A program made the translations under genes and the position numbers. Shown here one piece after another: positions 36,411-63,776 of a stretch of DNA of 64,000 nt (position 1 is the first letter of the stretch; every line of letters starts with the position of its first letter). The notes under the pieces are model-generated. The model saw nothing but the letters and a program-made list of their open reading frames with translations, was not told the DNA's origin and did no database searches. Source of the stretch: an uncultured virus (IMG/VR IMGVR_UViG_3300027749_002987) (taxonomy: Duplodnaviria; Heunggongvirae; Uroviricota; Caudoviricetes); IMG/VR virus record IMGVR_UViG_3300027749_002987; one strand, written 5' to 3'.

Positions 36411-37187
36411 ATGCAGAAAACTTATCGTAGCATTTTTATTTCTGACGTACACCTTGGCACACGTGACTCACAAGCTGCCAAGCTCAACAACTTTCTCAAA
36501 CACAATACATGCGAAACATTATATCTTGTAGGAGATATTATCGATGCATGGAAAATTCAACAAAACAAATGGCGATGGAAACAAAGCCATACAAATGTTG
36601 TTCGCCGTGTACTTGGCCATGCCAAACGTGGCACTAGGGTTGTATACGTGGCTGGAAATCATGACGAATTCCTGCGCCCGATGATACCATATGGTTTTAG
36701 TTTTGGTCTTGTTGAAATACACAATCAAACAGAACACATAGGTGCAGATGGCAAACACTATCTTGTAACACACGGTGATTTGTTTGATGGCATTACTAGA
36801 CTTGCTCCGTGGCTTGCTTTTTTGGGAGACAAGTTATACGATTTAGTATTAGATTGGAACAGTAGATTCAATTGGATACGCCATAAGTTAGGCTTTGGTT
36901 ACTGGAGTCTTAGTAAATATCTCAAGCACAAAGTCAAGAAGGCCTCGGACTTTATGTTTCAATTTGAAAAGAATCTAGCAGGCTATTGTAAAAAGCGCGG
37001 CTTTGACGGTGTTATATGCGGACATATACATCACGCTGAAATAAAAGAAATAGACGGCGTCACATACATGAATGATGGTGACTGGGTTGAAAGTTGTACG
37101 GCCTTGGTTGAACACCACGATGGTAAGTGGGAGATAATCACATGGACACGAGAGAATGACAAAGACGATACTGATAATAACGGATAA
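36411..37187 (+). CDS. LpxH-family metallophosphoesterase (PlcP-like)
   Basis: SDVHLG, GDIID, GNHD, HGD, GHIH, NDGDWVES. Confidence 0.88.
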   Translation: MQKTYRSIFISDVHLGTRDSQAAKLNNFLKHNTCETLYLVGDIIDAWKIQQNKWRWKQSHTNVVRRVLGHAKRGTRVVYVAGNHDEFLRPMIPYGFSFGLVEIHNQTEHIGADGKHYLVTHGDLFDGITRLAPWLAFLGDKLYDLVLDWNSRFNWIRHKLGFGYWSLSKYLKHKVKKASDFMFQFEKNLAGYCKKRGFDGVICGHIHHAEIKEIDGVTYMNDGDWVESCTALVEHHDGKWEIITWTRENDKDDTDNNG

Positions 37188-42890: not shown

Positions 42891-43094
42891 ATGGCAACAG
42901 GTAAAGTAAAATGGTTTAATGAAACCAAAGGTTTTGGATTTATTACTCCAGACGGTGGCGGCGAAGAACTTTTCGCTCACTACTCGGCAATTCAAACATC
43001 AGGATTCAAAGTTCTGCAAGAGAATCAAGCAGTAACGTTTGATGTAGTTCAGGGACAAAAAGGCTTGCAGGCAGCAAATATTCAACCCAAGTAA
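42891..43094 (+). CDS. cspA: cold shock protein
   Basis: GKVKWFN..KGFGFI, FAHYSAI. Confidence 0.95.
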
Positions 43095-43107
43095 TTGGGT
43101 TAAAGAG

Positions 43108-43445
43108 ATAGTTGTAATCCCTTCAAAGTGAAGGCATTCTGGACCCGGGGGCAGTGCCCGGCAGGTCCACCATAAGCAGTTTGGGTCAGATGTTATAAGT
43201 CCATAGTGCATTCATATACAAGACTGTTTTTGATGGGCCTGACACAGTTTCGACAGGGTGAGATAATAGAGACGGCAACTCAGTAGGCGATGACTGTAAA
43301 TCAAGCAAAACTCGTAAATGCAAACGCAAATACATTCAAGTTTTTTGAAGTTGACTTCGACATTTCAGCAATGAATGACGAATCAGCATTCGAATTAGCT
43401 GCCTAAGAAACAGCACTTGCGAGGTAGGAAAGACCTTGTCACCAA
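43108..43445 (+). ncRNA. ssrA: circularly permuted two-piece tmRNA
   Basis: Acceptor piece ends CAGGTCCACCA (43172); coding piece starts GGGCCTGA (43235); G3.U70 pair; tag ORF 43320-43406 ends LAA; outer ends approximate. Confidence 0.88.
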
Positions 43446-43454
43446 ACATAACCA

Positions 43455-43479
43455 GAAAGCACCTTCGGGTGCTTTTCTT
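43455..43479 (+). terminator. intrinsic terminator
   Basis: GAAAGCACC-TTCG-GGTGCTTTT. Confidence 0.8.
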
Positions 43480-43494
43480 ATGATTAAATAGAAT

Positions 43495-45686: not shown

Positions 45687-45710
45687 AAAAATCGTATATC
45701 AACACGGTTC

Positions 45711-45947
45711 TTGACAAGAGATATAAATACTCTTATAATAGAAACAGGTTAGCAGGCAAGGCAACTGACTAAAAATATTTTTTAGCAAGTTAGCCAAAAC
45801 ATGTTGACATGATTGCTGAAAGGCAATATACTAGAGATTAGTTAGCAAACAATGTAGAATAGAGATGTTGTAAATATACAACAAAGAAATTTTACAAAAG
45901 GTGTTGACAACATTGTAGCAAGGTGCTACAATAGAGACTAGTTAGCA
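45711..45947 (+). promoter_or_regulatory. three tandem sigma70 promoters upstream of the tRNA array
   Basis: TTGACA at 45711, 45804, 45904, each 17 bp from TATAAT/TATACT/TACAAT and followed by AGARA..RGTTAGCA. Confidence 0.8.
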
Positions 45948-45990
45948 ATAATGCTAGCGAATTTTAAAGAAGAGTTAAACGAGAACAAAA

Positions 45991-46140
45991 ATGCAATCTA
46001 ATTTTAGACAACATCAATTTAATACGATGCCCAAACAGGTAGGCGTTATAGCCTCTTATTGGTCAGCGATTAATTGCGGAAGTCTATCTTCATTAGATCG
46101 TACACCAGAGATTAGCAGGGTCCGGGAGGACATGATGTAA
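45991..46140 (+). CDS. putative attenuator leader peptide, 49 aa
   Basis: Uses all 20 amino acids; 3' end overlaps the antiterminator arm; weak RBS. Confidence 0.6.
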   Translation: MQSNFRQHQFNTMPKQVGVIASYWSAINCGSLSSLDRTPEISRVREDMM

Positions 46141-46165
46141 ACGTAAGTTTACCCAAACTCCAAGG

Positions 46166-46201
46166 ACCCTAGGACTAACACTCCTGGGGTTTTTTGTTTT
46201 T
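46166..46201 (+). terminator. conditional terminator (attenuator)
   Basis: ACCCTAGGA/TCCTGGGGT plus T tract; competes with 46117-46128 pairing. Confidence 0.75.
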
Positions 46202-46460
46202 AGACTTTCGAAATAGTGTGAATATGTGGAAACGAGGTCCACGTCCTGCACTTAAAACATGGGACAAACGGGCGGCCTGTACGATGAAACTCTTCTTCTA
46301 GAGCGAAAAACTACAGCGTATTAAAGCATATTATAGGGACGGCCAAACCCATAGTATGGTACTGCATAGCAGGCGTTATTAGTATGCTTTAATACACACT
46401 CTCTACCTCCGCCTGCACAGCGGTTGACAGCATAGCGGGAGAGTGTTACAATAGAGACAT

Positions 46461-46552: not shown

Positions 46553-46627
46553 GGCTTCATAGTATAATGGTTAGTACGGTGGCTTGTCACGCCATTAATA
46601 GGGGTTCGATTCCCCTTGGAGCCGCCA
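46553..46627 (+). tRNA. tRNA-Asp(GTC)
   Basis: Cloverleaf, CCA. Confidence 0.9.
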
Positions 46628-46633
46628 ATTTTT

Positions 46634-46708
46634 GACGCATTCGTCTATCGGTTAGGACACTAGGTTTTCATCCTGGCAAGAGGGGTTCGATTCCCCTATG
46701 CGTCTCCA
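46634..46708 (+). tRNA. tRNA-Glu(TTC)
   Basis: Cloverleaf, CCA. Confidence 0.9.
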
Positions 46709-46715
46709 AGTTTAT

Positions 46716-46790
46716 TCCAGAGTAGCACAGCGGTAGTGCAGTTGACTGTTAATCAATTGGTCGTAGGTTCGATCCCTGCCTCTGGAGCCA
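46716..46790 (+). tRNA. tRNA-Asn(GTT)
   Basis: Cloverleaf, CCA. Confidence 0.92.
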
Positions 46791-46796
46791 ATCAAT

Positions 46797-46870
46797 CGCG
46801 GATTAGAGAAACGGTATCTCAGAAGTCTCATAAGCTTCAGTTGGTGGTTCGATTCCGCCATCCGCAACCA
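46797..46870 (+). tRNA. tRNA-Met(CAT), initiator-like
   Basis: C1:A72 mismatch, CCA; lacks the GGG/CCC anticodon stem. Confidence 0.85.
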
Positions 46871-46876
46871 AACAAT

Positions 46877-46951
46877 GGGCTGATAGTGATAATGGGAGCA
46901 CAGGGCGTTTGCAACGCTTTAGTCGGGGTTCGATCCCCCGTCGGTCCACCA
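46877..46951 (+). tRNA. tRNA-Ala(TGC)
   Basis: G3.U70, CCA. Confidence 0.9.
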
Positions 46952-46957
46952 TGTTTT

Positions 46958-47031
46958 TCCCGGATAGTTAAATGGTATAACAATCGGCTGATAACCGGTC
47001 ATTACAAGTTCGATTCTTGTTCTGGGAACCA
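46958..47031 (+). tRNA. tRNA-Ile(GAT)
   Basis: Cloverleaf, CCA. Confidence 0.9.
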
Positions 47032-47036
47032 AGTTT

Positions 47037-47088
47037 AGGATACTAACAGCAATTTTTATTTTTTTGGTAAAAAGAAAATGTATCCTGT
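47037..47088 (+). ncRNA. stem-ACAGCAA element 1 (GGT anticodon-like loop)
   Basis: AGGATAC/GTATCCT stem, TAACAGCAA, TTGGTAA loop. Confidence 0.65.
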
Positions 47089-47095
47089 TTATTAC

Positions 47096-47170
47096 ACTGT
47101 CGTCGTCTAGTGGCTAGGACGCTACCCTTTCAAGGTGGAGAAGCGGGATCGATACCCGTCGACAGTACCA
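47096..47170 (+). tRNA. tRNA-Glu(TTC), atypical T loop
   Basis: Cloverleaf, ATCGATA T loop, CCA. Confidence 0.85.
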
Positions 47171-47186
47171 AGTTTAGGAGTTGTCA

Positions 47187-47315
47187 ATGGCAAATGTAAA
47201 GCAAGGCAATCTTACAAAAAGTCCTCAATGGTGGAAACACTTAAAGGACTGGAAACGTGTGTTCTGGAAATCAGAACGTCAAGCACAAAAGAAACATATC
47301 AACAAAGGAGAATGA
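47187..47315 (+). CDS. small Trp/Lys-rich protein, 42 aa
   Basis: AGGAG RBS; QWWKHLKDWKRVFWKSER. Confidence 0.6.
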   Translation: MANVKQGNLTKSPQWWKHLKDWKRVFWKSERQAQKKHINKGE

Positions 47316-47401
47316 CATGAAACGTTCACGTAAACGTTAGTGTCGACCTTGACCCCGTATTGGTCCTGGTTGGCACATTAAATCAAATTAATTACGACCA
47401 A

Positions 47402-47477
47402 CCACTCGTAGCGTTAATGGTAGCGCACTTGACTCTTAATCAATGAGGTGTCGGTTCGAATCCGACTGAGTGGACCA
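47402..47477 (+). tRNA. tRNA-Lys(CTT)
   Basis: Cloverleaf, CCA. Confidence 0.88.
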
Positions 47478-47481
47478 ATAT

Positions 47482-47557
47482 GGGATTGTGGTGAAATGGT
47501 TATCACAGCGGACTTTTAATCCGTCAATTCCCGGTTCGAGTCCGGGCAGTCCTACCA
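47482..47557 (+). tRNA. tRNA-Lys(TTT)
   Basis: Cloverleaf, CCA. Confidence 0.9.
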
Positions 47558-47624
47558 TATGAAAACACACTTCCGACAGCAGGCGGAGGTGACAATGTCC
47601 ATTCGGGCGAGTGTGTTTCCATAT

Positions 47625-47700
47625 GGTAGCGTAGCATAGCGGCTAATGCACCACCTTCATACGGTGTTTATCGTGAGTTCGAGTCTCACCGCTACTACCA
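47625..47700 (+). tRNA. tRNA-Met/Ile2(CAT)
   Basis: Cloverleaf, CCA. Confidence 0.85.
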
Positions 47701-47707
47701 AGTTTAT

Positions 47708-47783
47708 CTCTCTGAAGCGTTATCTGGTTGCGTACACGGTTTGGGGCCGTGTGGTCAAGGTTCGAATCCTTGCAGGGAGACCA
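47708..47783 (+). tRNA. tRNA-Pro(TGG)
   Basis: Cloverleaf, CCA. Confidence 0.85.
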
Positions 47784-47788
47784 AGTTT

Positions 47789-47850
47789 AGGATAGCAACA
47801 GCAAATTTAAAAATCTTTTCTCGAAAAAAAGCCAAAAAATGCTATCCTGT
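47789..47850 (+). ncRNA. stem-ACAGCAA element 2 (CGA anticodon-like loop)
   Basis: AGGATAGCA/TGCTATCCT stem; CTTTT-CTCGAAA-AAAAG. Confidence 0.65.
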
Positions 47851-47857
47851 TTTATTT

Positions 47858-47931
47858 GCCCTATTAGTTAAATGGTAGAACACCTGTTTTGTAATCAGGT
47901 AATGGCAGTTCGATTCTGTCATGGGGCACCA
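47858..47931 (+). tRNA. tRNA-Thr(TGT)
   Basis: Cloverleaf, CCA. Confidence 0.88.
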
Positions 47932-47937
47932 AGTTAT

Positions 47938-48057
47938 GTCGTTGTCGTCTAATGGTAGGACGCTTATAAAAGGTTATCCTGTTAAGGATACAGTCAGCAA
48001 TTTACAACATTCCATGTCAAGGAAGAGATCTGGGTTCGAATCCCAGCAACGACACCA
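47938..48057 (+). tRNA. tRNA-Asp(GTC) with a 46-nt insertion in the anticodon stem
   Basis: Acceptor, D and T arms and CCA intact; insert is a permuted ACAGCAA element. Confidence 0.75.
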
Positions 48058-48121
48058 AGTTTATGAGTTCGTCTAGAAACCGGTAAATTGTAGTTTGGTC
48101 TACAAGCTCATAATTAGTTTT

Positions 48122-48178
48122 AGGATGCGAACAGCAAATTCAAAAATTCAACTTTTAATTGAAAAATAAGCATCCTGT
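48122..48178 (+). ncRNA. stem-ACAGCAA element 3 (TTT anticodon-like loop)
   Basis: AGGATGC/GCATCCT stem; TTCAA-CTTTTAA-TTGAA. Confidence 0.7.
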
Positions 48179-48186
48179 TTTATTGT

Positions 48187-48260
48187 TGGCGTATTGTGTA
48201 ATGGTAGCACAACAGACTTTGACTCTGTTAGTCTAGGTTCGATCCCTAGTGCGCCTGCCA
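48187..48260 (+). tRNA. tRNA-Gln(TTG)
   Basis: Cloverleaf, CCA. Confidence 0.88.
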
Positions 48261-48265
48261 AATTT

Positions 48266-48339
48266 GCTCTTATAATTTAATGGTAGAATGCCTTCTTGGT
48301 ATGGAGGCAATGATGGTTCGATTCCCTCTAAGAGCACCA
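48266..48339 (+). tRNA. tRNA-Thr(GGT)
   Basis: Cloverleaf, CCA. Confidence 0.85.
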
Positions 48340-48344
48340 AATTT

Positions 48345-48419
48345 ATCGCTATAGTATAATGGATAATACACTACGCTACGAACGTGGGAATAGAGGTTCG
48401 ATTCCTTTTGGCGGTACCA
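48345..48419 (+). tRNA. tRNA-Arg(ACG)
   Basis: Cloverleaf, CCA. Confidence 0.88.
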
Positions 48420-48437
48420 ATTTTAATCTACTTAGGT

Positions 48438-48508
48438 GTGGCCATAACTTAATGGTAAAGTCGTGGATTGTGATTCCGCTTATCTGGGTTCAATTCCCAG
48501 TGGTCACC
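48438..48508 (+). tRNA. tRNA-His(GTG), no encoded CCA
   Basis: Cloverleaf inside a 12-bp flanking inverted repeat. Confidence 0.82.
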
Positions 48509-48523
48509 CCTAAGTAGATTTTT

Positions 48524-48597
48524 AGTTCCTTAGTTTAATGGAAGAACAGTGCGTTGACATCGCGCAGATAAAAGTTCGATTCTTTTAGGAACTACCA
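48524..48597 (+). tRNA. tRNA-Val(GAC)
   Basis: Cloverleaf, CCA. Confidence 0.85.
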
Positions 48598-48600
48598 AGT

Positions 48601-48814
48601 TTTGTAAGTGTCAGCAAGAGAAAGTCACGCTATAAAAGTTTCTTCGAAGGACTGATATAGTAGAAGGTAATGGGTTCGATCCCCACCCGGGCACGTAGTG
48701 TCTGAGGGCAAAAGGTTGCAAGCTGGACCGGTATCCCAAGTGACGTATCTTGACCCTGCCGGCTTTATTACAAGGGAAAATGGTTGCGATATGAGGGACG
48801 CAACTACTTACAAA
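48601..48814 (+). ncRNA. structured RNA with terminal stem, TCAGCAA and a T-arm mimic
   Basis: TTTGTAAGT/ACTTACAAA; TGGG-TTCGATC-CCCA. Confidence 0.55.
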
Positions 48815-48870
48815 TTCAACAGACCCCCGCTTTCCAAGTTGTGCGGCGAACAACCTGGACTAATTCAAAT

Positions 48871-48946
48871 GCTACTTTAGCTGATGTGGTCATAGCGGCG
48901 GTCTGAAGAACCGTTGAACTAGGTTCGATTCCTAGAGGTAGCACCA
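48871..48946 (+). tRNA. tRNA-Phe(GAA)
   Basis: Cloverleaf, CCA. Confidence 0.88.
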
Positions 48947-48952
48947 AACAAT

Positions 48953-49044
48953 GCCAGCGAGACTTGGTAGTCAGAGAGTCCTTATAAGACTTTTAGCGCC
49001 AGATTAGCGTTCTTGAGAGGGTTCGATTCCCTCCGCTGGTACCA
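48953..49044 (+). tRNA. atypical tRNA with TAT anticodon (Ile?)
   Basis: Mini D loop, long variable arm, CCA. Confidence 0.7.
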
Positions 49045-49050
49045 ACCAAT

Positions 49051-49127
49051 GTGGGTGTGCCGCTGAATGGTTAGGCCCCGGATTGCAAATCCGTTCCATG
49101 CAGGTTCGAGTCCTGTCACCCACTCCA
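49051..49127 (+). tRNA. tRNA-Cys(GCA)
   Basis: Cloverleaf, U73, CCA. Confidence 0.88.
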
Positions 49128-49133
49128 AATTTT

Positions 49134-49210
49134 GCCCTGCTGGCGCAATTGGTAGACGCAACTCTCTCAAAAGGAGTGAAGTCCCCGTTCGAGTCGGGGG
49201 CAGGGTACCA
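49134..49210 (+). tRNA. tRNA-Leu(CAA), short variable loop
   Basis: Cloverleaf, CCA. Confidence 0.82.
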
Positions 49211-49241
49211 AAATATATTTTAGCAAGTTTGCCAAAATGTA

Positions 49242-49270
49242 GTGACAACACACAACAAAGACATTATAAT
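49242..49270 (+). promoter_or_regulatory. sigma70 promoter of the ncRNA-DUF2828 operon
   Basis: GTGACA-17-TATAAT. Confidence 0.7.
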
Positions 49271-49308
49271 AGATACATAGCAAGCAATAATGCAAGCTAA
49301 AGAGTTTT

Positions 49309-49465
49309 AGGATCGGTACAGCAACTTCATATTAAATGGAACGCTAATCTTATGTTAATCGCTGGAGCCTGTATGGGCTTTGAAGGTTATTAGCAATAAT
49401 GAGATTAGATAGAGGAGTTTCGATAAGTCTCCTCGATAAAAACAAAAAGTAGAAAACGATCCTGT
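49309..49465 (+). ncRNA. stem-ACAGCAA element 4 (large insert)
   Basis: AGGATCG/CGATCCT, GTACAGCAA, internal hairpins. Confidence 0.65.
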
Positions 49466-49471
49466 TAATTT

Positions 49472-49702
49472 TGGATGACTACAGCAACCTAAAATACTAA
49501 CGTAACTGCTATAGACGGTGGTCGAAGGACACAGTAGAAATACTGTTCTAGCAATAGACGCTCAAGAAATAGATAGACTGGCAAAGCACCAGGTATGATT
49601 TACATACAGAAAAACATGTAATAGGCAACATGAATGTTGCTAGGGTCTGGGTGCTATAATTGGCCAGACCAGAAAATAAACAAACTAGCACGATCATCCT
49701 GT
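49472..49702 (+). ncRNA. stem-ACAGCAA element 5 (large insert)
   Basis: GGATGA/TCATCC, CTACAGCAA, internal hairpins. Confidence 0.65.
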
Positions 49703-49711
49703 TAAAGTTTT

Positions 49712-49768
49712 AGAATGTTAACAGCAACTTTAAATTTCAACTATAATCGAAAATAAAATACATTCTGT
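49712..49768 (+). ncRNA. stem-ACAGCAA element 6
   Basis: AGAATGT/ACATTCT (compensatory change), TAACAGCAA. Confidence 0.65.
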
Positions 49769-49781
49769 AAAGGTAATCAAA

Positions 49782-51197
49782 ATGAACGCATTTGTAACAG
49801 CAGTAGCAAATCAAGAAGCCCGTACCGCCAACGGTATGAAGGCACGTAAGTCAACAGCATCAGCTTGTGTTGACTTGTTCTACAAGATCGGCGCAAGCCG
49901 TGGTAAGAACATCACAGGCGACTTCACAGCCGCTTATGTGGAAAACTCGGACGTAGCACTACGTATCGCACAATGGGCACGTGATGTCCGTGGTGGTGCA
50001 GGTGAACGTCAACTGTTCCGCGACATTCTAGTACATCTAGAAAAGCGTGACCCAGACGCCGCTTTGGCTCTGTTGAAGAAGGTTCCAGAAGTGGGCCGTT
50101 GGGATGACATCTTTGTCTTCCAATCACCAGTGTTGAAGTCAGCCGCTTATACCATGTTGGGTGATGCCCTACGTGCTAAGAACGGGTTGGCTGCAAAGTG
50201 GACTCCTCGTAAGGGTCAAGTTGCCGCTGAAGTACGAGCATTCTTCGGAATGTCTCCGAAGCAATACCGTAAGAGCCTAGTTGGTATGACCACAGTTGTA
50301 GAAACACAAATGTGTGCAGGCGATTGGGACAACATCAACTTCAGTCACGTGCCAAGTGTTGCTTCACGCAACTACAAGAAGGCATTTGGTCGTCACACAC
50401 CGGCATTCGCTGAATATGTGGCTAAGTTGGTTGCAGGTGACAAGACTGTGAAGGTTAATGCCAACGCAATCTTTCCACATGATGTGCTTAAGGGACTTGT
50501 TAGTGCATATGGTCGTAAGACTTTGTCTAAGACAGAGCTGGATCACATTACTGCTCAATGGAATGCTTTGCCAAACTACGTTGGAGATGCCAACATCATG
50601 CCAATCGTAGACGTATCGGGTTCTATGTCTTGCCCAGCAGGAAAGAACACCAACGTAACTTGCATGGACGTTTCAATCAGCTTGGGCTTGTACCTAGCAG
50701 ATAAGAACAAGGGCGTGTTCAAGGACACATTCTTGACTTTCTCAGACAAGCCACAACTGGTTACTCTAAAGGGTAACATTGTTGAAAAGGTTGATCAAAT
50801 GAGCAAGAGCAACTGGGACATGAGCACTAATCTGCATGCCGCTATGGATAAGATCCTGTCGGTTGCAGTTAAGGGTTCAGTACCAGCAAGTGACATGCCT
50901 GGCATGTTGCTGATCTTGAGTGACATGCAGTTTAACCAATGCGCTCGTTACGACGACAGCGCAATGCAAATGATAGAACGCAAGTTCGCAGACGCAGGTT
51001 ACTCTGTGCCACAGATTGTTTTCTGGAACCTAAACAGTTCAGACAACGTACCTGTAGCGTCAGACAAGAGTGGTGCCGCATTGGTAAGTGGATTCAGCCC
51101 ATCAATCATGACCAGCTTGCTGGCCGCTGATTTGGATCAGTTCACTCCAGAAGGAATCATGCTTAAGACTGTGATGAGTGATCGTTACGCTCTGTAA
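49782..51197 (+). CDS. DUF2828-family helical + vWA protein (Ro60/TROVE-like architecture)
   Basis: T.NG...ST, RDVRGGAGER, GRWDD, AAKWTPR; MIDAS DVSGSM, SDMQF, FWNL, SGFS. Confidence 0.82.
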   Translation: MNAFVTAVANQEARTANGMKARKSTASACVDLFYKIGASRGKNITGDFTAAYVENSDVALRIAQWARDVRGGAGERQLFRDILVHLEKRDPDAALALLKKVPEVGRWDDIFVFQSPVLKSAAYTMLGDALRAKNGLAAKWTPRKGQVAAEVRAFFGMSPKQYRKSLVGMTTVVETQMCAGDWDNINFSHVPSVASRNYKKAFGRHTPAFAEYVAKLVAGDKTVKVNANAIFPHDVLKGLVSAYGRKTLSKTELDHITAQWNALPNYVGDANIMPIVDVSGSMSCPAGKNTNVTCMDVSISLGLYLADKNKGVFKDTFLTFSDKPQLVTLKGNIVEKVDQMSKSNWDMSTNLHAAMDKILSVAVKGSVPASDMPGMLLILSDMQFNQCARYDDSAMQMIERKFADAGYSVPQIVFWNLNSSDNVPVASDKSGAALVSGFSPSIMTSLLAADLDQFTPEGIMLKTVMSDRYAL

Positions 51198-52921: not shown

Positions 52922-53476
52922 ATGAAAACATATAAATTTTTATCTATTGAAAATCATGAGCTTATTTCTAAAAAGCTCTACGAGTATGTAATTAACAAGA
53001 CGGATATCCTGGAAAAGAAATGGGACTGGAATACACTTGATCGTGATGCAGTTTTGCAATTTGTTCCAGAACTAGCAGTGGCCTGTTCAAAGATTATTGA
53101 TCATCCAATTACAATGATTTCTATAGTGCATAGGCCTGCTGGCGCCAGCGGTGGCGCACATGTCGATGTGGGTAATTATGATTATCGTGTATTATGGCCT
53201 GTGGCAAATTGTCAAGGATCTTTTACAAAATTCTTTGACTTGAATGGGAATAACTTAATTGAAACAAAGGGCGCCGAAGGTGACACTTTTTTAACTATCG
53301 AAAAAAAGAATCCGTTGATAGAGATAGATGCTGTTGAACTTGTTGCTCCTGTGGTGTTTTGTACTAGAACTCCGCATGGTGTATTTACAAATCCTTCATG
53401 CACTGAGTCAAGATTAACAGCAACTATTGGATTTGGAAAATTTCCTCTAGAACAATTTTTTAACGGTCTTTGGTGA
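52922..53476 (+). CDS. cupin/2OG-oxygenase-like protein
   Basis: HVD...PH...R. Confidence 0.6.
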   Translation: MKTYKFLSIENHELISKKLYEYVINKTDILEKKWDWNTLDRDAVLQFVPELAVACSKIIDHPITMISIVHRPAGASGGAHVDVGNYDYRVLWPVANCQGSFTKFFDLNGNNLIETKGAEGDTFLTIEKKNPLIEIDAVELVAPVVFCTRTPHGVFTNPSCTESRLTATIGFGKFPLEQFFNGLW

Positions 53477-58626: not shown

Positions 58627-58887
58627 ATGAGAGCAAGTCACATTTTGGTAGATACTATTGCACAAGCAGAAACAATTTTGGCAGAAGCTAATGCATTGAA
58701 TTTTGGACAGTTGGCACAACAACACAGCAAGTGCCCAAGTAAAGCCTCAGGCGGTGACCTGGGTGTATTTAATCCTGGACAGATGGTCAAGCCGTTCGAA
58801 GATGCTACTTTGGCAACTCCTGTCGGATCTATAAGTCAGCCGGTACAAACACAGTTTGGTTATCATTTGATTCACCGTACTGGTTAA
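58627..58887 (+). CDS. ppiC: parvulin peptidyl-prolyl isomerase
   Basis: ASHILV, SKCPS, GGDLG, TQFGYHLI. Confidence 0.93.
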   Translation: MRASHILVDTIAQAETILAEANALNFGQLAQQHSKCPSKASGGDLGVFNPGQMVKPFEDATLATPVGSISQPVQTQFGYHLIHRTG

Positions 58888-63145: not shown

Positions 63146-63309
63146 AGATTAAATTTGATAAAGATACAATGCCTGACGAATTGTACAATTCGCTATTACA
63201 GCATTTTGTAAACGAAGCAGTTGGACTGGGTGTAGAAGTCGACAAGTTTACCCAGTTTAATAACTGGGTCGTTGAATGTACTGTAGACGCAAAAGAAGCG
63301 GTGCATTAA
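63142..63309 (+). CDS. hypothetical protein
   Basis: ATGA-coupled ORF. Confidence 0.55.
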   Translation: MKIKFDKDTMPDELYNSLLQHFVNEAVGLGVEVDKFTQFNNWVVECTVDAKEAVH

Positions 63310-63776
63310 TGCCTAGGTGTTACCAACTAATTGGAGTGCCAGGCGCTGGAAAAAGTACTTGGATCAAAGATCAAATTTGGGCTTTGGGTTTGACCGTAGT
63401 TAGCACAGATTCGTTTGTAGAAGACTATGCAAGAGAGCAGGGTAAAACTTATTCTGAAGTATTTACAGACTACATGCCCCGAGCAGTTGAGCTTATGGCT
63501 GAACAAGTTGTATTTGCACGTGAGCACGACCATACTATAATTTGGGATCAAACTAGTACTACTATTGCTAGTCGTGCTAAGAAGTTTCGAATGTTGCCTG
63601 ACTATGAACATATTGCGGTAGTATTTCCTACACCTGAGCATACAGAACTTGTTCGTAGACTGGCAAGTCGTTGGGAGTCTGGAAAAATTGTACCAGAACA
63701 TGTTGTTGCTAGTATGATTGCCAGTTGGGAAGATCCAACCGAAGAAGAAGGTTTTAAAGAAATTTGGAGAACATGA
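63309..63776 (+). CDS. P-loop kinase (polynucleotide kinase-like)
   Basis: GVPGAGKST, WDQT, RRL..R lid. Confidence 0.8.
   Translation: MPRCYQLIGVPGAGKSTWIKDQIWALGLTVVSTDSFVEDYAREQGKTYSEVFTDYMPRAVELMAEQVVFAREHDHTIIWDQTSTTIASRAKKFRMLPDYEHIAVVFPTPEHTELVRRLASRWESGKIVPEHVVASMIASWEDPTEEEGFKEIWRT

Follow-up and report, generated by a model that had tools for sequence, protein, structure and literature searches.

What are the short elements that lie between the tRNA genes of a lake-water phage, and are the hairpins inside them anticodon arms? The window (the whole stretch of 64,000 nucleotides that was analysed) carries small-RNA genes interspersed with the phage's tRNA genes (Table 1). Three of them, E1 to E3, are ~55-nt elements (54-64 nt) lying 5-8 nt from each flanking tRNA, and each holds one hairpin inside a fixed handle. 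The handle runs from a 5' (A)G through a covarying stem of 6-8 bp, the motif ACAGCAA, a variable middle and the return strand of the stem to a terminal C-UGU(U). A first-pass annotation had read the inner hairpins as stand-alone anticodon arms and as possible decoys or repair cassettes directed against anticodon nucleases, and the sequences and positions of all three are exactly as it recorded. Acceptor stem, D arm and T arm are absent from E1-E3, and neither ARAGORN nor Rfam called a tRNA there. Rfam at gathering thresholds gave no name to any element, and megablast of positions 46900-50000 against phage records returned no match.

Table 1. Handle RNAs and associated features, by position in the window.
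Feature	Position	Strand	Details
E1 handle RNA	47037..47090	+	stem AGGAUAC / GUAUCCU; ACAGCAA at 47046-47052; 3' UGUU
E1 inner hairpin	47059-47075	+	TTTTT-TTGGTAA-AAAGA; loop UUGGUAA, triplet GGU
E2 handle RNA	47789..47852	+	stem AGGAUAGCA / UGCUAUCCU
E2 inner hairpin	47815-47831	+	CTTTT-CTCGAAA-AAAAG; loop CUCGAAA, triplet CGA
tRNA-like gene with built-in handle	47938..48057	+	full cloverleaf: acceptor, D arm, T arm, ACCA
Closed handle hairpin	47975-47990	+	UAUCCU-GUUA-AGGAUA, inserted before the anticodon arm of the tRNA-like gene
CAGUCAGCAA	47991-48000	+	insert before the anticodon arm of the tRNA-like gene
Anticodon arm of tRNA-like gene	48010-48024	+	loop AUGUCAA, triplet GUC
E3 handle RNA	48122..48180	+	stem AGGAUGC / GCAUCCU
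E3 inner hairpin	48147-48163	+	TTCAA-CTTTTAA-TTGAA; loop CUUUUAA, triplet UUU as in tRNA-Lys
E4 long handle RNA	49309..49468	+	stem AGGAUCG / CGAUCCU; 140-nt structured middle
E5 long handle RNA	49473..49704	+	stem GGAUGA / UCAUCC; middle of ~210 nt
E6 handle RNA	49712..49769	+	stem AGAAUGU / ACAUUCU; CM 70.4 bits (training sequence)
Ro60-fold protein gene, 471 aa (predicted fold)	49782..51197	+	Pfam DUF2828 + DUF7788

The handle is real. A strict handle scanner run over 84 sources found 200 matches, all of them on the gene strand (0 on the opposite one), and a relaxed version gave 243 against 19, with 15 of those 19 falling in one coding stretch. In alignment A2, 7 of the 8 handle pairs vary on both sides and 89% of cells are paired, and the score of this alignment was reached by 0 of 500 shuffles. 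Phages ranging from Listeria to Ralstonia hosts keep the ACAGCAA motif, the G-C pair and the UGU tail, and copies of the handle also stand outside tRNA arrays, adjoining a protein gene (E4-E6, and copies in phages AG20 and CP30A). E1, E2 and E3 score 59.2, 65.7 and 68.9 bits with the CM, of which each was a training sequence. Further copies of ACAGCAA at 53417, 58724 and 60213 were rejected, as neither the UGU tail nor a closing G-C pair accompanies them; those at 58724 and 60213 lie within ORFs. A literature search for this RNA family found no description of it.

The first-pass annotation had cautioned that any single AT-rich hairpin might be due to chance, and the marginal folding energies of E1-E3 bear this out. 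At minimum energy, E1 folds into an 8-bp stem and a 5-nt loop instead of the anticodon-like hairpin, the middle of E2 is unfolded in its minimum-energy fold, and the middle of E3, folded alone, forms the 5-bp/7-nt hairpin at only -0.7 kcal/mol. Across 48 folded elements the middles are AU-rich and barely stable, at 0 to -2.8 kcal/mol. Since the hairpins are thermodynamically marginal, one sequence is insufficient and comparison across the family decides.

For this comparison 55 distinct short elements with a GGAT-type handle were collected without regard to their middles; they are related sequences and not independent draws, so the counts that follow overstate the number of independent events. 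A stem of at least 4 bp closing a 7-nt loop of the form Y-T-NNN-R-N was found in 39 of the 55 (29 with a stem of at least 5 bp), and the narrower loop C-T-NNN-A-A in 32. When these middles were shuffled one thousand times, the average count was 1.5 (maximum 6) for the first form and 0.2 (maximum 3) for the narrower one, and when the middles were read backwards 1/55 fitted. The ~5-bp stem and 7-nt loop obeying the Y-U-NNN-R rule, as first described, hold in E1-E3 and in most of these 55 elements. When the longest-stem hairpin was taken with no loop rule, 30 of the 55 elements had a 7-nt loop, with C32 in 21, U33 in 25, A37 in 25 and A38 in 24, and these 30 carry 13 triplets in 24 distinct stem-plus-loop combinations. 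Triplets in the family include UUU, UCU, CUU, GUA and UGA, with the flanks held and the stems covarying; the CTTTTAA loop is borne by four different stems of 4 bp, and a TAGA/TCTA stem is recorded. These data show that the tips of these short elements are structural mimics of the tRNA anticodon arm and that selection acts on the loop.

Among the three elements of the array, support for an anticodon-like hairpin is best for E3 (Lys-UUU), good for E2 and weaker for E1. The CUUUUAA loop of E3 is kept in relatives on several covarying stems. Relatives of E2 retain the CUUUU/AAAAG stem with the loops CUUGAAA and CUGUAAA, and the wobble position of E2 itself (47822) reads C>T in RNA-library contigs from 3 of 4 runs. 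E1 is the weakest of the three because the loops vary among relatives' copies with the GGAUAC handle stem (CUGCAAA, AUGCAAA, AUCCAAA, AUCCAAG and also loops of 5-6 nt). The neighbouring tRNA-like gene, which scores 47.8 bits with the Rfam tRNA model and drew no ARAGORN call, adds positional evidence. The hairpin that follows its handle is the anticodon arm of a cloverleaf, and this supports the anticodon-arm reading of the hairpins in the short elements. A homolog in a relative has the same layout with another triplet, in the loop CUGCUAA.

Contigs from lake and freshwater RNA libraries (four, from four studies) cover 25-29 of 30 bins; as contigs with possible DNA carry-over, they inform on presence and strain variants and not on ends, strand or level. 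Joints in these contigs reveal mosaic arrays in which elements are gained and lost. The tRNA-like gene is skipped in some of them (joints 47933>48119 and 47936>48122), and the presence of E5 is variable, with one contig joining 49466 to 49711. Two whole contigs, 49303-49453 and 49473-49670, resemble E4 and E5 in extent, a likeness that is no evidence of RNA ends.

Other members of the family carry different middles. E6, which stops 13 nt short of the Ro60-like gene's start codon, has an inner hairpin with a loop of 9-10 nt that is not anticodon-like, and in this gene-adjacent type (E6 and 39 other distinct copies) the anticodon-like fit is 2/40, which is chance level, with loops mostly of 9-10 nt. 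The version in E6 had been called degenerate at the outset, which agrees with this result. Short elements of distant phages (RSP15, LeBron, AG20, TP1 and Bas63) mostly fail either U33 or the 7-nt length: the LeBron loop ATGGTAA has U33 and A37 but an A at position 32, RSP15 has three 7-nt loops, all without U33, and the remaining loops of RSP15, LeBron, Listeria AG20 and TP1 have other lengths or G33. Anticodon-like loops are largely confined to the lineage of the window phage. The expectation that homologs would keep 7-nt loops with U33, R37 and varying anticodons was therefore borne out in the array-embedded elements and failed in the E6 type and in the short elements of distant phages. E4 is strongly folded (-43.1 kcal/mol, z -3.76), and E4-like copies of 150-169 nt account for 46 of the 200 scanner matches; no tRNA-like domain could be assigned in E4 or E5 by eye or by fold.

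The product of the gene downstream of E6 is the presumed protein partner of the handle. An AlphaFold2 model of the 471-aa protein had pLDDT 91.5 and pTM 0.90, and all 13 Foldseek matches in the PDB at E <= 0.001 were Ro60/TROVE structures, with full-length TM values to Ro60 structures of 0.38-0.61. On this model the protein is predicted to have Ro60 architecture, namely a HEAT-repeat ring and a vWA domain. D277, S279, S281, T349 and D381 are invariant among 62 sequences and form a DxSxS...T...D set, which we take to be the MIDAS motif. At the sequence level, Pfam did not match TROVE and reached vWA_Ro60 only at E 0.08, and a search of the protein against the PDB gave a chance-level match (E 0.7).

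The linkage of gene and handle extends well beyond the window. Eight named phages from families unrelated to one another have the handle next to a gene for DUF2828/DUF7788: Cronobacter S13, Ralstonia RSP15, Vibrio nt-1, Listeria AG20, Mycobacterium LeBron, Campylobacter CP30A, and E. coli TP1 and Bas63. Among the five longest contigs retrieved by the RNA pattern alone, all five encode DUF7788 on the strand of the handle, 2-14 kb away. With 711 phage records and, at 50% identity, 6,191 clusters, the DUF2828/DUF7788 family is very large, and a protein atlas placed the family of the window protein in viral clusters only. In one member of the family the protein continues into a fused PF13563 domain, a family that Pfam names the 2'-5' RNA ligase superfamily. 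In Listeria AG20 the family gene lies near genes annotated as tRNA splicing ligase and RNA ligase. Because the handle recurs beside genes for Ro60-fold proteins, we interpret the family as Y-RNA-like partner RNAs that carry tRNA-part modules.

Membership in a widespread RNA family tied to a Ro60-fold gene changes the likely mechanism from the one first proposed. We suggest, with a probability of about one half, that the handle RNAs and the Ro60-like protein together present pieces of tRNA, the anticodon arms serving as bait or adaptor. E1-E3 would be freed as ~55-nt RNAs from the tRNA-array transcript by tRNA-processing cuts on both sides. By analogy with Y RNA and Ro60, the handle, with its 5' G-3' C pair, stem, single-stranded ACAGCAA and UGU(U) tail, would dock on the protein. 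The variable tip would then offer a copy of the anticodon arm (a stem of 4-5 bp and a loop C/U-U-NNN-A-A), and related RNAs carry a T arm, a sealed acceptor, a D arm or a whole tRNA on the same handle. With the handle docked and the tip being part of a tRNA, the ribonucleoprotein would present tRNA pieces. Serving as bait or adaptor for proteins that read the anticodon loop is in our analysis the most likely role of the anticodon-arm versions, with host anticodon nucleases as the leading candidate. Anticodon nucleases specific for tRNA-Lys include PrrC, RloC and AriB of PARIS. For PrrC, PMC1484252 locates the main recognition cues in the anticodon stem-loop. Against a bait role, a mimic that lacks base modifications might serve poorly as a substrate for nucleases that sense them, and by eye none of the stems matches the anticodon stems of the phage's own tRNAs for Lys, Thr and Asp. 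The related proposal that the elements are repair cassettes or spare arms drew no support from any result obtained.

An unlikely alternative is that the loops act as selectors or adaptors in quality control or repair, either by loop-to-loop pairing with a complementary tRNA anticodon or by recruiting a tRNA-modifying or repair enzyme to the Ro60-like ring. Descriptions of Ro60/Y RNA systems present them as platforms for quality control and repair (PMC4201824, PMC7824862), the triplets are varied, as a selector requires, and both the PF13563 fusion and the RNA-ligase-type genes annotated near the AG20 family gene would fit. Against these points, the 28 kb of the window scanned by Pfam contain no RNA ligase, and such a mechanism is without precedent for Ro60. 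Still less probable is that the handles are folding or cleavage signals that punctuate a long tRNA precursor, with middles that are functionless spacers. The short distances to the flanking tRNAs and the mosaic gain and loss of elements are consistent with punctuation, but several findings argue against it: ACAGCAA, the G-C pair and the UGU tail persist across phages ranging from Listeria to Ralstonia hosts, copies stand beside a protein gene outside tRNA arrays, and the loops are conserved directionally, unlike expected spacers.

We disfavour, as very improbable, the view that the elements are remnants of decayed tRNA genes in which the anticodon arm has survived. Their location in a tRNA array and their tRNA-like loops would fit, but the hairpins are flanked by no other tRNA remnants, the stems covary while the loop flanks are kept, and one frame carries at least 13 triplets. 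In comparison with tRNAs of the phage itself, the loop departs at positions 32 and 38 for Asp or at 38 for Thr, and the stems differ for Lys. Chance hairpins in AT-rich spacer DNA, which the weak stems and the early caution had brought into view, are refuted for the whole family by 39/55 against a shuffle maximum of 6 and 1/55 in reverse, and are possible for E1 alone.

The usual reading of phage tRNA arrays is that they assist codon usage or stand in for tRNAs that host defences have cut. On the bait-or-adaptor reading that we prefer, the spacers of this array would add a second layer, in the form of small RNAs that display nothing of a tRNA beyond the region read by anticodon nucleases, on a handle tied to a Ro60-like protein. 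If the anticodon arms are indeed bait, this would be a new principle of RNA-based counter-defence and would give a function to a widespread "DUF" protein. The tRNA-Lys of phage T5 acts against PARIS. Phage tRNAs that escape or neutralise tRNA-cutting defences were reportedly described by van den Berg et al. 2023. These are likewise RNAs with anticodon loops encoded in tRNA arrays and tied to host anticodon nucleases; however, as complete tRNAs able to decode, they take the place of host tRNAs that were cleaved, whereas the handle RNAs of the short type are bare arms with no charging or decoding.

Among the closest known systems are the YrlA-type Y RNAs of Ro60/Rsr (RF02553; Chen et al. 2014, PMC4201824), in which a small RNA likewise lies beside the gene for a ring-shaped Ro60-fold protein and a terminal docking stem is combined with a variable module that mimics tRNA. 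The YrlA layout of T arm, sealed acceptor and D arm recurs in long family members of S13, RSP15, TP1 and LeBron, and the long LeBron element scores 39.8 bits with the Rfam YrlA model, below its gathering score of 69. In the window, RF02553 and RF00019 gave no match at E <= 10. The window protein differs in scoring with DUF2828/DUF7788 and not with TROVE, and the handle sequence is unrelated to the stem that is common to the CcrColossus RNAs encoded upstream of a genuine TROVE gene, the site to which Chen et al. assign its YrlA RNAs (PMC4201824). In addition, the short phage RNAs carry the anticodon arm only, which is the sole tRNA part that YrlA lacks.

Bas63 links the family to a defence phenotype. 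Its gene 130 product shares 36% identity with the window protein at 97% query coverage, and the gene sits immediately upstream of an array of tRNAs with handle RNAs. A PhageMaP preprint (PMC11482910) reports gp130 as Ro60-like and as countering the Ppl defence system, which its authors propose to cut DNA, not tRNA. They guessed that some annotated Bas63 tRNAs might be Y RNAs, without describing handle RNAs. Unlike in the window, the short elements of Bas63 are not anticodon-like. With gene, handle RNAs and a reported defence phenotype in one phage of E. coli K-12, the question is open to bench work.

The handle also resembles the Class I RNAs of dictyostelids (RF01414; Kjellin et al. 2021, PMC7919456). 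These RNAs, found only in Dictyostelia according to PMC7919456, share with the handle RNAs a length of 42-65 nt and a 5' (AA)G; in both, a short stem that covaries connects the two ends, a motif with ACAGCAA as its last letters adjoins the 5' strand, the middle is variable and A/U-rich, and the C of the 3' CUGU forms a pair with the 5' G. The RF01414 model aligns E1 end to end at 24.3 bits; its scores in the window, 24.3 and 23.0 bits, fall below the gathering threshold of 41.5, and E2 and E6 were not reported. The phage RNAs differ in being set in a tRNA operon rather than in an amoeba and in lacking the DUSE promoter (~60 nt upstream in Class I). The known direct binder of Class I RNAs is the RRM protein Rnp1A, and a pulldown using DdR-21, a Class I RNA, recovered four proteins, among them the uncharacterised DDB_G0281243 (bioRxiv 10.1101/2020.04.05.026054). 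We found no mention of DDB_G0281243 in the searchable supplements of PMC7919456, and in the literature it appeared in the 2020 preprint only; a search for longer homologs of the window protein returned 4 proteins, none named as dictyostelid. We put forward only tentatively, as unlikely, that the handle RNAs of phages and giant viruses and the amoebal Class I RNAs are one class docking on Ro60-fold DUF2828/DUF7788 proteins, in which the phage anticodon arms neutralise tRNA-cutting host enzymes. If they are one class, DDB_G0281243 or another dictyostelid protein would belong to the DUF2828/DUF7788 family, and phages would have turned the class into a modular display of tRNA parts. The likeness of the handle to Class I RNAs also gives a testable starting point for work on the mechanism of an abundant RNA class of amoebae.

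Six elements on the + strand of the window (E1-E3 short, E4-E5 long, and E6 gene-adjacent) share a frame made up of a 5' (A)G, a stem of 6-8 bp, one or two bases, ACAGCAA, a variable middle, and a complementary strand that ends in C and is followed by UGU(U). We refer to the terminal stem, ACAGCAA and 3' tail together as the handle. In the window and 83 related loci, a script for the exact frame returned 200 copies on the protein-gene strand and none on the opposite strand; a relaxed frame returned 243 and 19, respectively, and 15 of the latter 19 were one conserved coding stretch that recurs in many close relatives. When 95 distinct short copies were aligned, seven of the eight handle pairs changed on both sides, 89% of cells were paired, and the covariation score was reached by 0 of 500 shuffles; sliding the partner strand out of register reduced handle pairing to 32-50%. 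Judged from this alignment, the handle is a real RNA helix under selection.

Features of the window, with coordinates
Feature	Coordinates	Observation
E1	47037-47090	common frame
E2	47789-47852	common frame
E3	48122-48180	common frame
E4	49309-49468	common frame
E5	49473-49704	common frame
E6	49712-49769	common frame
E6 to Ro60-like start codon	49712-49781	3' handle strand and CUGU end 13 nt ahead of the start codon; AAAGG directly after E6, a possible ribosome-binding site
Ro60-like ORF (+)	49782-51197	471 aa; start 13 nt after E6 end
tRNA-like gene	47938-48057	complete cloverleaf with ACCA; handle inside the tRNA
tmRNA, phage-encoded	43059-43480	Rfam tmRNA_permuted 136.6 bits; beta_tmRNA 104 bits
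Promoter-like sites	45700-45960	three in tandem ahead of tRNA array (TTGACA, 17 nt, TATAAT-like), each followed by (A)GTTAGCAA
TTAGCAA unit, similar	49215-49300	ahead of E4
GC-rich paired segments	46040-46460	about 400 nt ahead of first tRNA; no Rfam match
Terminator-like hairpin	near 46160-46200	followed by T run
44-codon ORF	47181-47315	GGAG upstream; inside tRNA array, tRNA-Glu to tRNA-Lys; no Pfam match
Long near-perfect hairpin	47560-47622	tRNA-Lys(UUU) to tRNA-Met; CATATGAAAACACAC ... GTGTGTTTCCATATG
Stretch of about 270 nt	48598-48870	tRNA-Val to tRNA-Phe; T-arm-like GGGTTCGATCCCC; no Rfam family match
92-nt tRNA	48953-49044	Ile (anticodon UAU) by ARAGORN; unusual long arm; best Rfam model tRNA-Sec, 33 bits, below threshold 47
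Calcineurin-like phosphoesterase	36411-37187	
AAA_33 kinase-like protein	63276-63776	

ARAGORN predicted 32 tRNA genes in the window, 20 of them at 46553-49210, and Rfam added further tRNA matches, including one at 47938-48054 that ARAGORN misses. No named phage record was a near match to the DNA of 46900-50000 by megablast. The protein gene was 100% identical in one IMG/VR contig, and relatives at 79-94% protein identity were present on 79 further viral contigs; the sequencing runs that contain parts of the region are labelled as lake-water or freshwater metagenomes. Contigs from four RNA libraries in four studies cover most of the region and include strain variants of the elements, but because they are contigs these data speak to presence only. 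One such contig skips the stretch of about 270 nt between tRNA-Val and tRNA-Phe (joint 48598 to 48869), a segment that may represent either a variable insert or an RNA that is excised.

The presumed partner of the handle is the 471-aa Ro60-like protein, which matched Pfam DUF7788 (E 5e-49) and DUF2828 (E 3e-27) and was not scored as TROVE by Pfam. Its AlphaFold2 model, built from an alignment of 62 diverse relatives, had a pLDDT of 91.5 and a pTM of 0.90, and each of its 13 PDB matches by Foldseek at E <= 0.001 was a Ro60/TROVE structure (Thermus phage phiLo, Xenopus, Deinococcus and human; TM 0.38-0.61, identity 11-17%). Residues D277, S279, S281, T349 and D381, which we take to be the metal-ion site of a vWA domain, were invariant in the same alignment. 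The family comprises 711 phage records (705 full length) and 6,191 clusters at 50% identity. A handle adjoined the DUF2828/DUF7788 gene in all eight named phages examined, which belong to unrelated families: Cronobacter S13, Ralstonia RSP15, Vibrio nt-1, Listeria AG20 (three elements in tandem directly upstream of the gene), Mycobacterium LeBron (three copies, tail AGU), Campylobacter CP30A, and the E. coli phages TP1 and Bas63 (tail UGG in both). In the reverse direction, starting from elements located through the RNA pattern alone, each of the five longest contigs (68-162 kb) encoded a DUF7788 protein at a distance of 2-14 kb from the element and on its strand. The last handle element of CP30A abuts the gene, as E6 does in the window. 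By binding the E6 copy, the protein might act as a repressor of its own translation.

The handle carries tRNA parts in more than one arrangement. In the long copies of S13, RSP15, TP1 and LeBron, it encloses a T arm, a loop-sealed acceptor stem and a D arm. The tRNA-like gene of the window has the opposite arrangement, with the handle placed between D arm and anticodon arm as a closed hairpin (UAUCCU-GUUA-AGGAUA), followed by CAGUCAGCAA, a 9-nt spacer and an anticodon arm with the loop AUGUCAA. A relative in L050 has the same design with the loop CUGCUAA and another acceptor stem. The order of handle, ACAGCAA-like motif, spacer and hairpin is identical in this gene and in E1-E3, so that the hairpin of E1-E3 occupies the place of an anticodon arm.

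The first-pass annotation had read these three hairpins as stand-alone anticodon arms (Thr-GGU, Ser-CGA and Lys-UUU) and possible anticodon-nuclease decoys, any one of which might be due to chance. We found all three exactly as described, and the caution was justified, since the hairpins are weak taken singly: the predicted best fold of E1 has another register, no fold was predicted for the middle of E2, and the E3 hairpin has -0.7 kcal/mol. Short elements were therefore judged as a set, gathered in two ways that are both blind to the middle, from 80 protein-anchored loci and from a scan for the 5' handle pattern across all viral contigs. The scan gave at least 135 matches at a minimum of 128 loci; among the 135 matches listed, the complete frame fitted inside the flank for 67, and the remaining 68 were for the most part chance matches in coding sequence or long copies truncated at the flank. 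The resulting 95 distinct elements comprised 55 of GGAT type (three from RSP15) and 40 others. Most of these 40 lie beside the gene and have the GAAUGU stem of E6 or, in some relatives, GGUUAU; three were other scanner matches, two of them too short for elements.

Anticodon-like hairpins in the middles of 95 short elements (counts are not independent events, because the sequences are related)
Hairpin	GGAT-type	Other
Stem >= 4 bp, loop Y-U-NNN-R-N	39/55	2/40
Loop C-U-NNN-A-A	32/55	0/40
Loop Y-U-NNN-R-N, stem >= 5 bp	29/55	1/40
Shuffles, Y-U-NNN-R-N, mean (maximum)	1.5 (6)	0.8 (4)
Shuffles, C-U-NNN-A-A, mean (maximum)	0.2 (3)	0.15 (2)
Reversed middles, Y-U-NNN-R-N	1/55	1/40

With the loop rule off, 30 of the 55 GGAT-type elements had a loop of 7 nt in their longest-stem hairpin, and these loops held 13 triplets, with C32 in 21, U33 in 25, A37 in 25 and A38 in 24; the commonest loop of the other group was 9 nt (22/40). 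Triplets in Y-U-NNN-R-N loops include UCU, CUU, GCU, UGU, GUA, GUU, UGA, CGA, GCA, GGU and, most commonly and on several different stems, UUU; CCA and GUC were seen in 7-nt loops whose position 32 is A. The last base is U or A in nearly all triplets, a bias that could come from AT-richness alone. Outside the lineage, short elements mostly fail the rule (CCGUUAA and CCUUAAC in RSP15, UGCGGAU in TP1, loops of 8-9 nt in AG20); the LeBron loop AUGGUAA conforms at U33 and A37 but not at position 32, which is A. The expectation that homologous loops would have 7 nt, U33/R37 and varying anticodons was thus borne out for the GGAT type, but not for the other type or most elements outside the lineage. 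On sequence grounds, E3 is a strongly supported candidate for an anticodon-arm mimic and E2 a supported one, its stem carrying CGA, UGA or GUA in relatives and its wobble position 47822 reading C>T in RNA-library contigs. E1 is uncertain, because relatives with its handle stem range from good mimics to 5-nt loops.

E1-E3 lie 5-8 nt from the tRNAs on both sides, and RNase P and 3' tRNA-processing enzymes would therefore be expected to free them from the array. The handle may then dock on the Ro60-fold protein, as in Y RNAs, a step suggested by linkage and fold, and the tip, in its sequence design, presents an anticodon arm. The AG20 family member lies near genes annotated as RNA ligases, and one 905-aa relative, the sole fusion seen, has an added PF13563 domain (2'-5' RNA ligase superfamily), a possible sign of a connection with the RNA ends that nucleases leave behind. 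The phosphoesterase and AAA_33 protein of the window are together reminiscent of the pair of activities found in polynucleotide kinase-phosphatase, although their genes are far apart. Gene 130 of Bas63 is a family member directly upstream of a tRNA array containing handle RNAs; the PhageMaP preprint (PMC11482910) describes it as countering the Ppl defence system, with smaller plaques upon deletion that complementation restores. This anti-Ppl role, together with the RNA-ligase neighbours and the fusion, points towards a phage-host conflict over tRNA. We put the probability that the anticodon-arm RNAs are bait at roughly 0.3; the main rival is that the short RNAs function as adaptors or selectors.

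Our literature search found no paper connecting DUF2828 to an RNA, none on ACAGCAA-type tRNA-like phage RNAs with a Ro-like protein, and, among the papers listed, no description of anticodon-arm decoys. The nearest published idea, offered as a guess in PMC11482910, is that the "tRNAs" of Bas63 may include Y RNAs, and Iyer et al. (PMC7824862) treat the ROT/TROVE protein of some jumbo phages as an RNA-repair platform. In a permissive Rfam scan, the sole notable matches of E1 (24.3 bits) and E3 (23.0 bits) were to the Dictyostelid Class I RNAs (RF01414; gathering score 41.5), and the alignment runs end to end through G, stem, CU-ACAGCAAUU, A/U-rich middle, stem and CUG. Exactly these features (5' G, stem, motif, A/U-rich middle, CUG) define Class I RNAs in Kjellin et al. 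(PMC7919456), who report none outside Dictyostelia. In its 2020 preprint form (bioRxiv 10.1101/2020.04.05.026054), that study lists four proteins recovered by pull-down with a single Class I RNA; one of the four, DDB_G0281243, is a protein of no known function. The handle design is the same in the phage RNAs and the Class I RNAs, although the scores of the phage RNAs do not place them in the family. YrlA (RF02553) shares the layout of T arm, sealed acceptor and D arm with the long copies of the four phages, and the LeBron long copy scored 39.8 bits against the YrlA model, below its threshold of 69. In CcrColossus, the RNAs that flank a genuine TROVE Ro60 gene have a conserved stem other than the handle, which argues that DUF2828/DUF7788 proteins and the handle form a parallel system rather than the known one.
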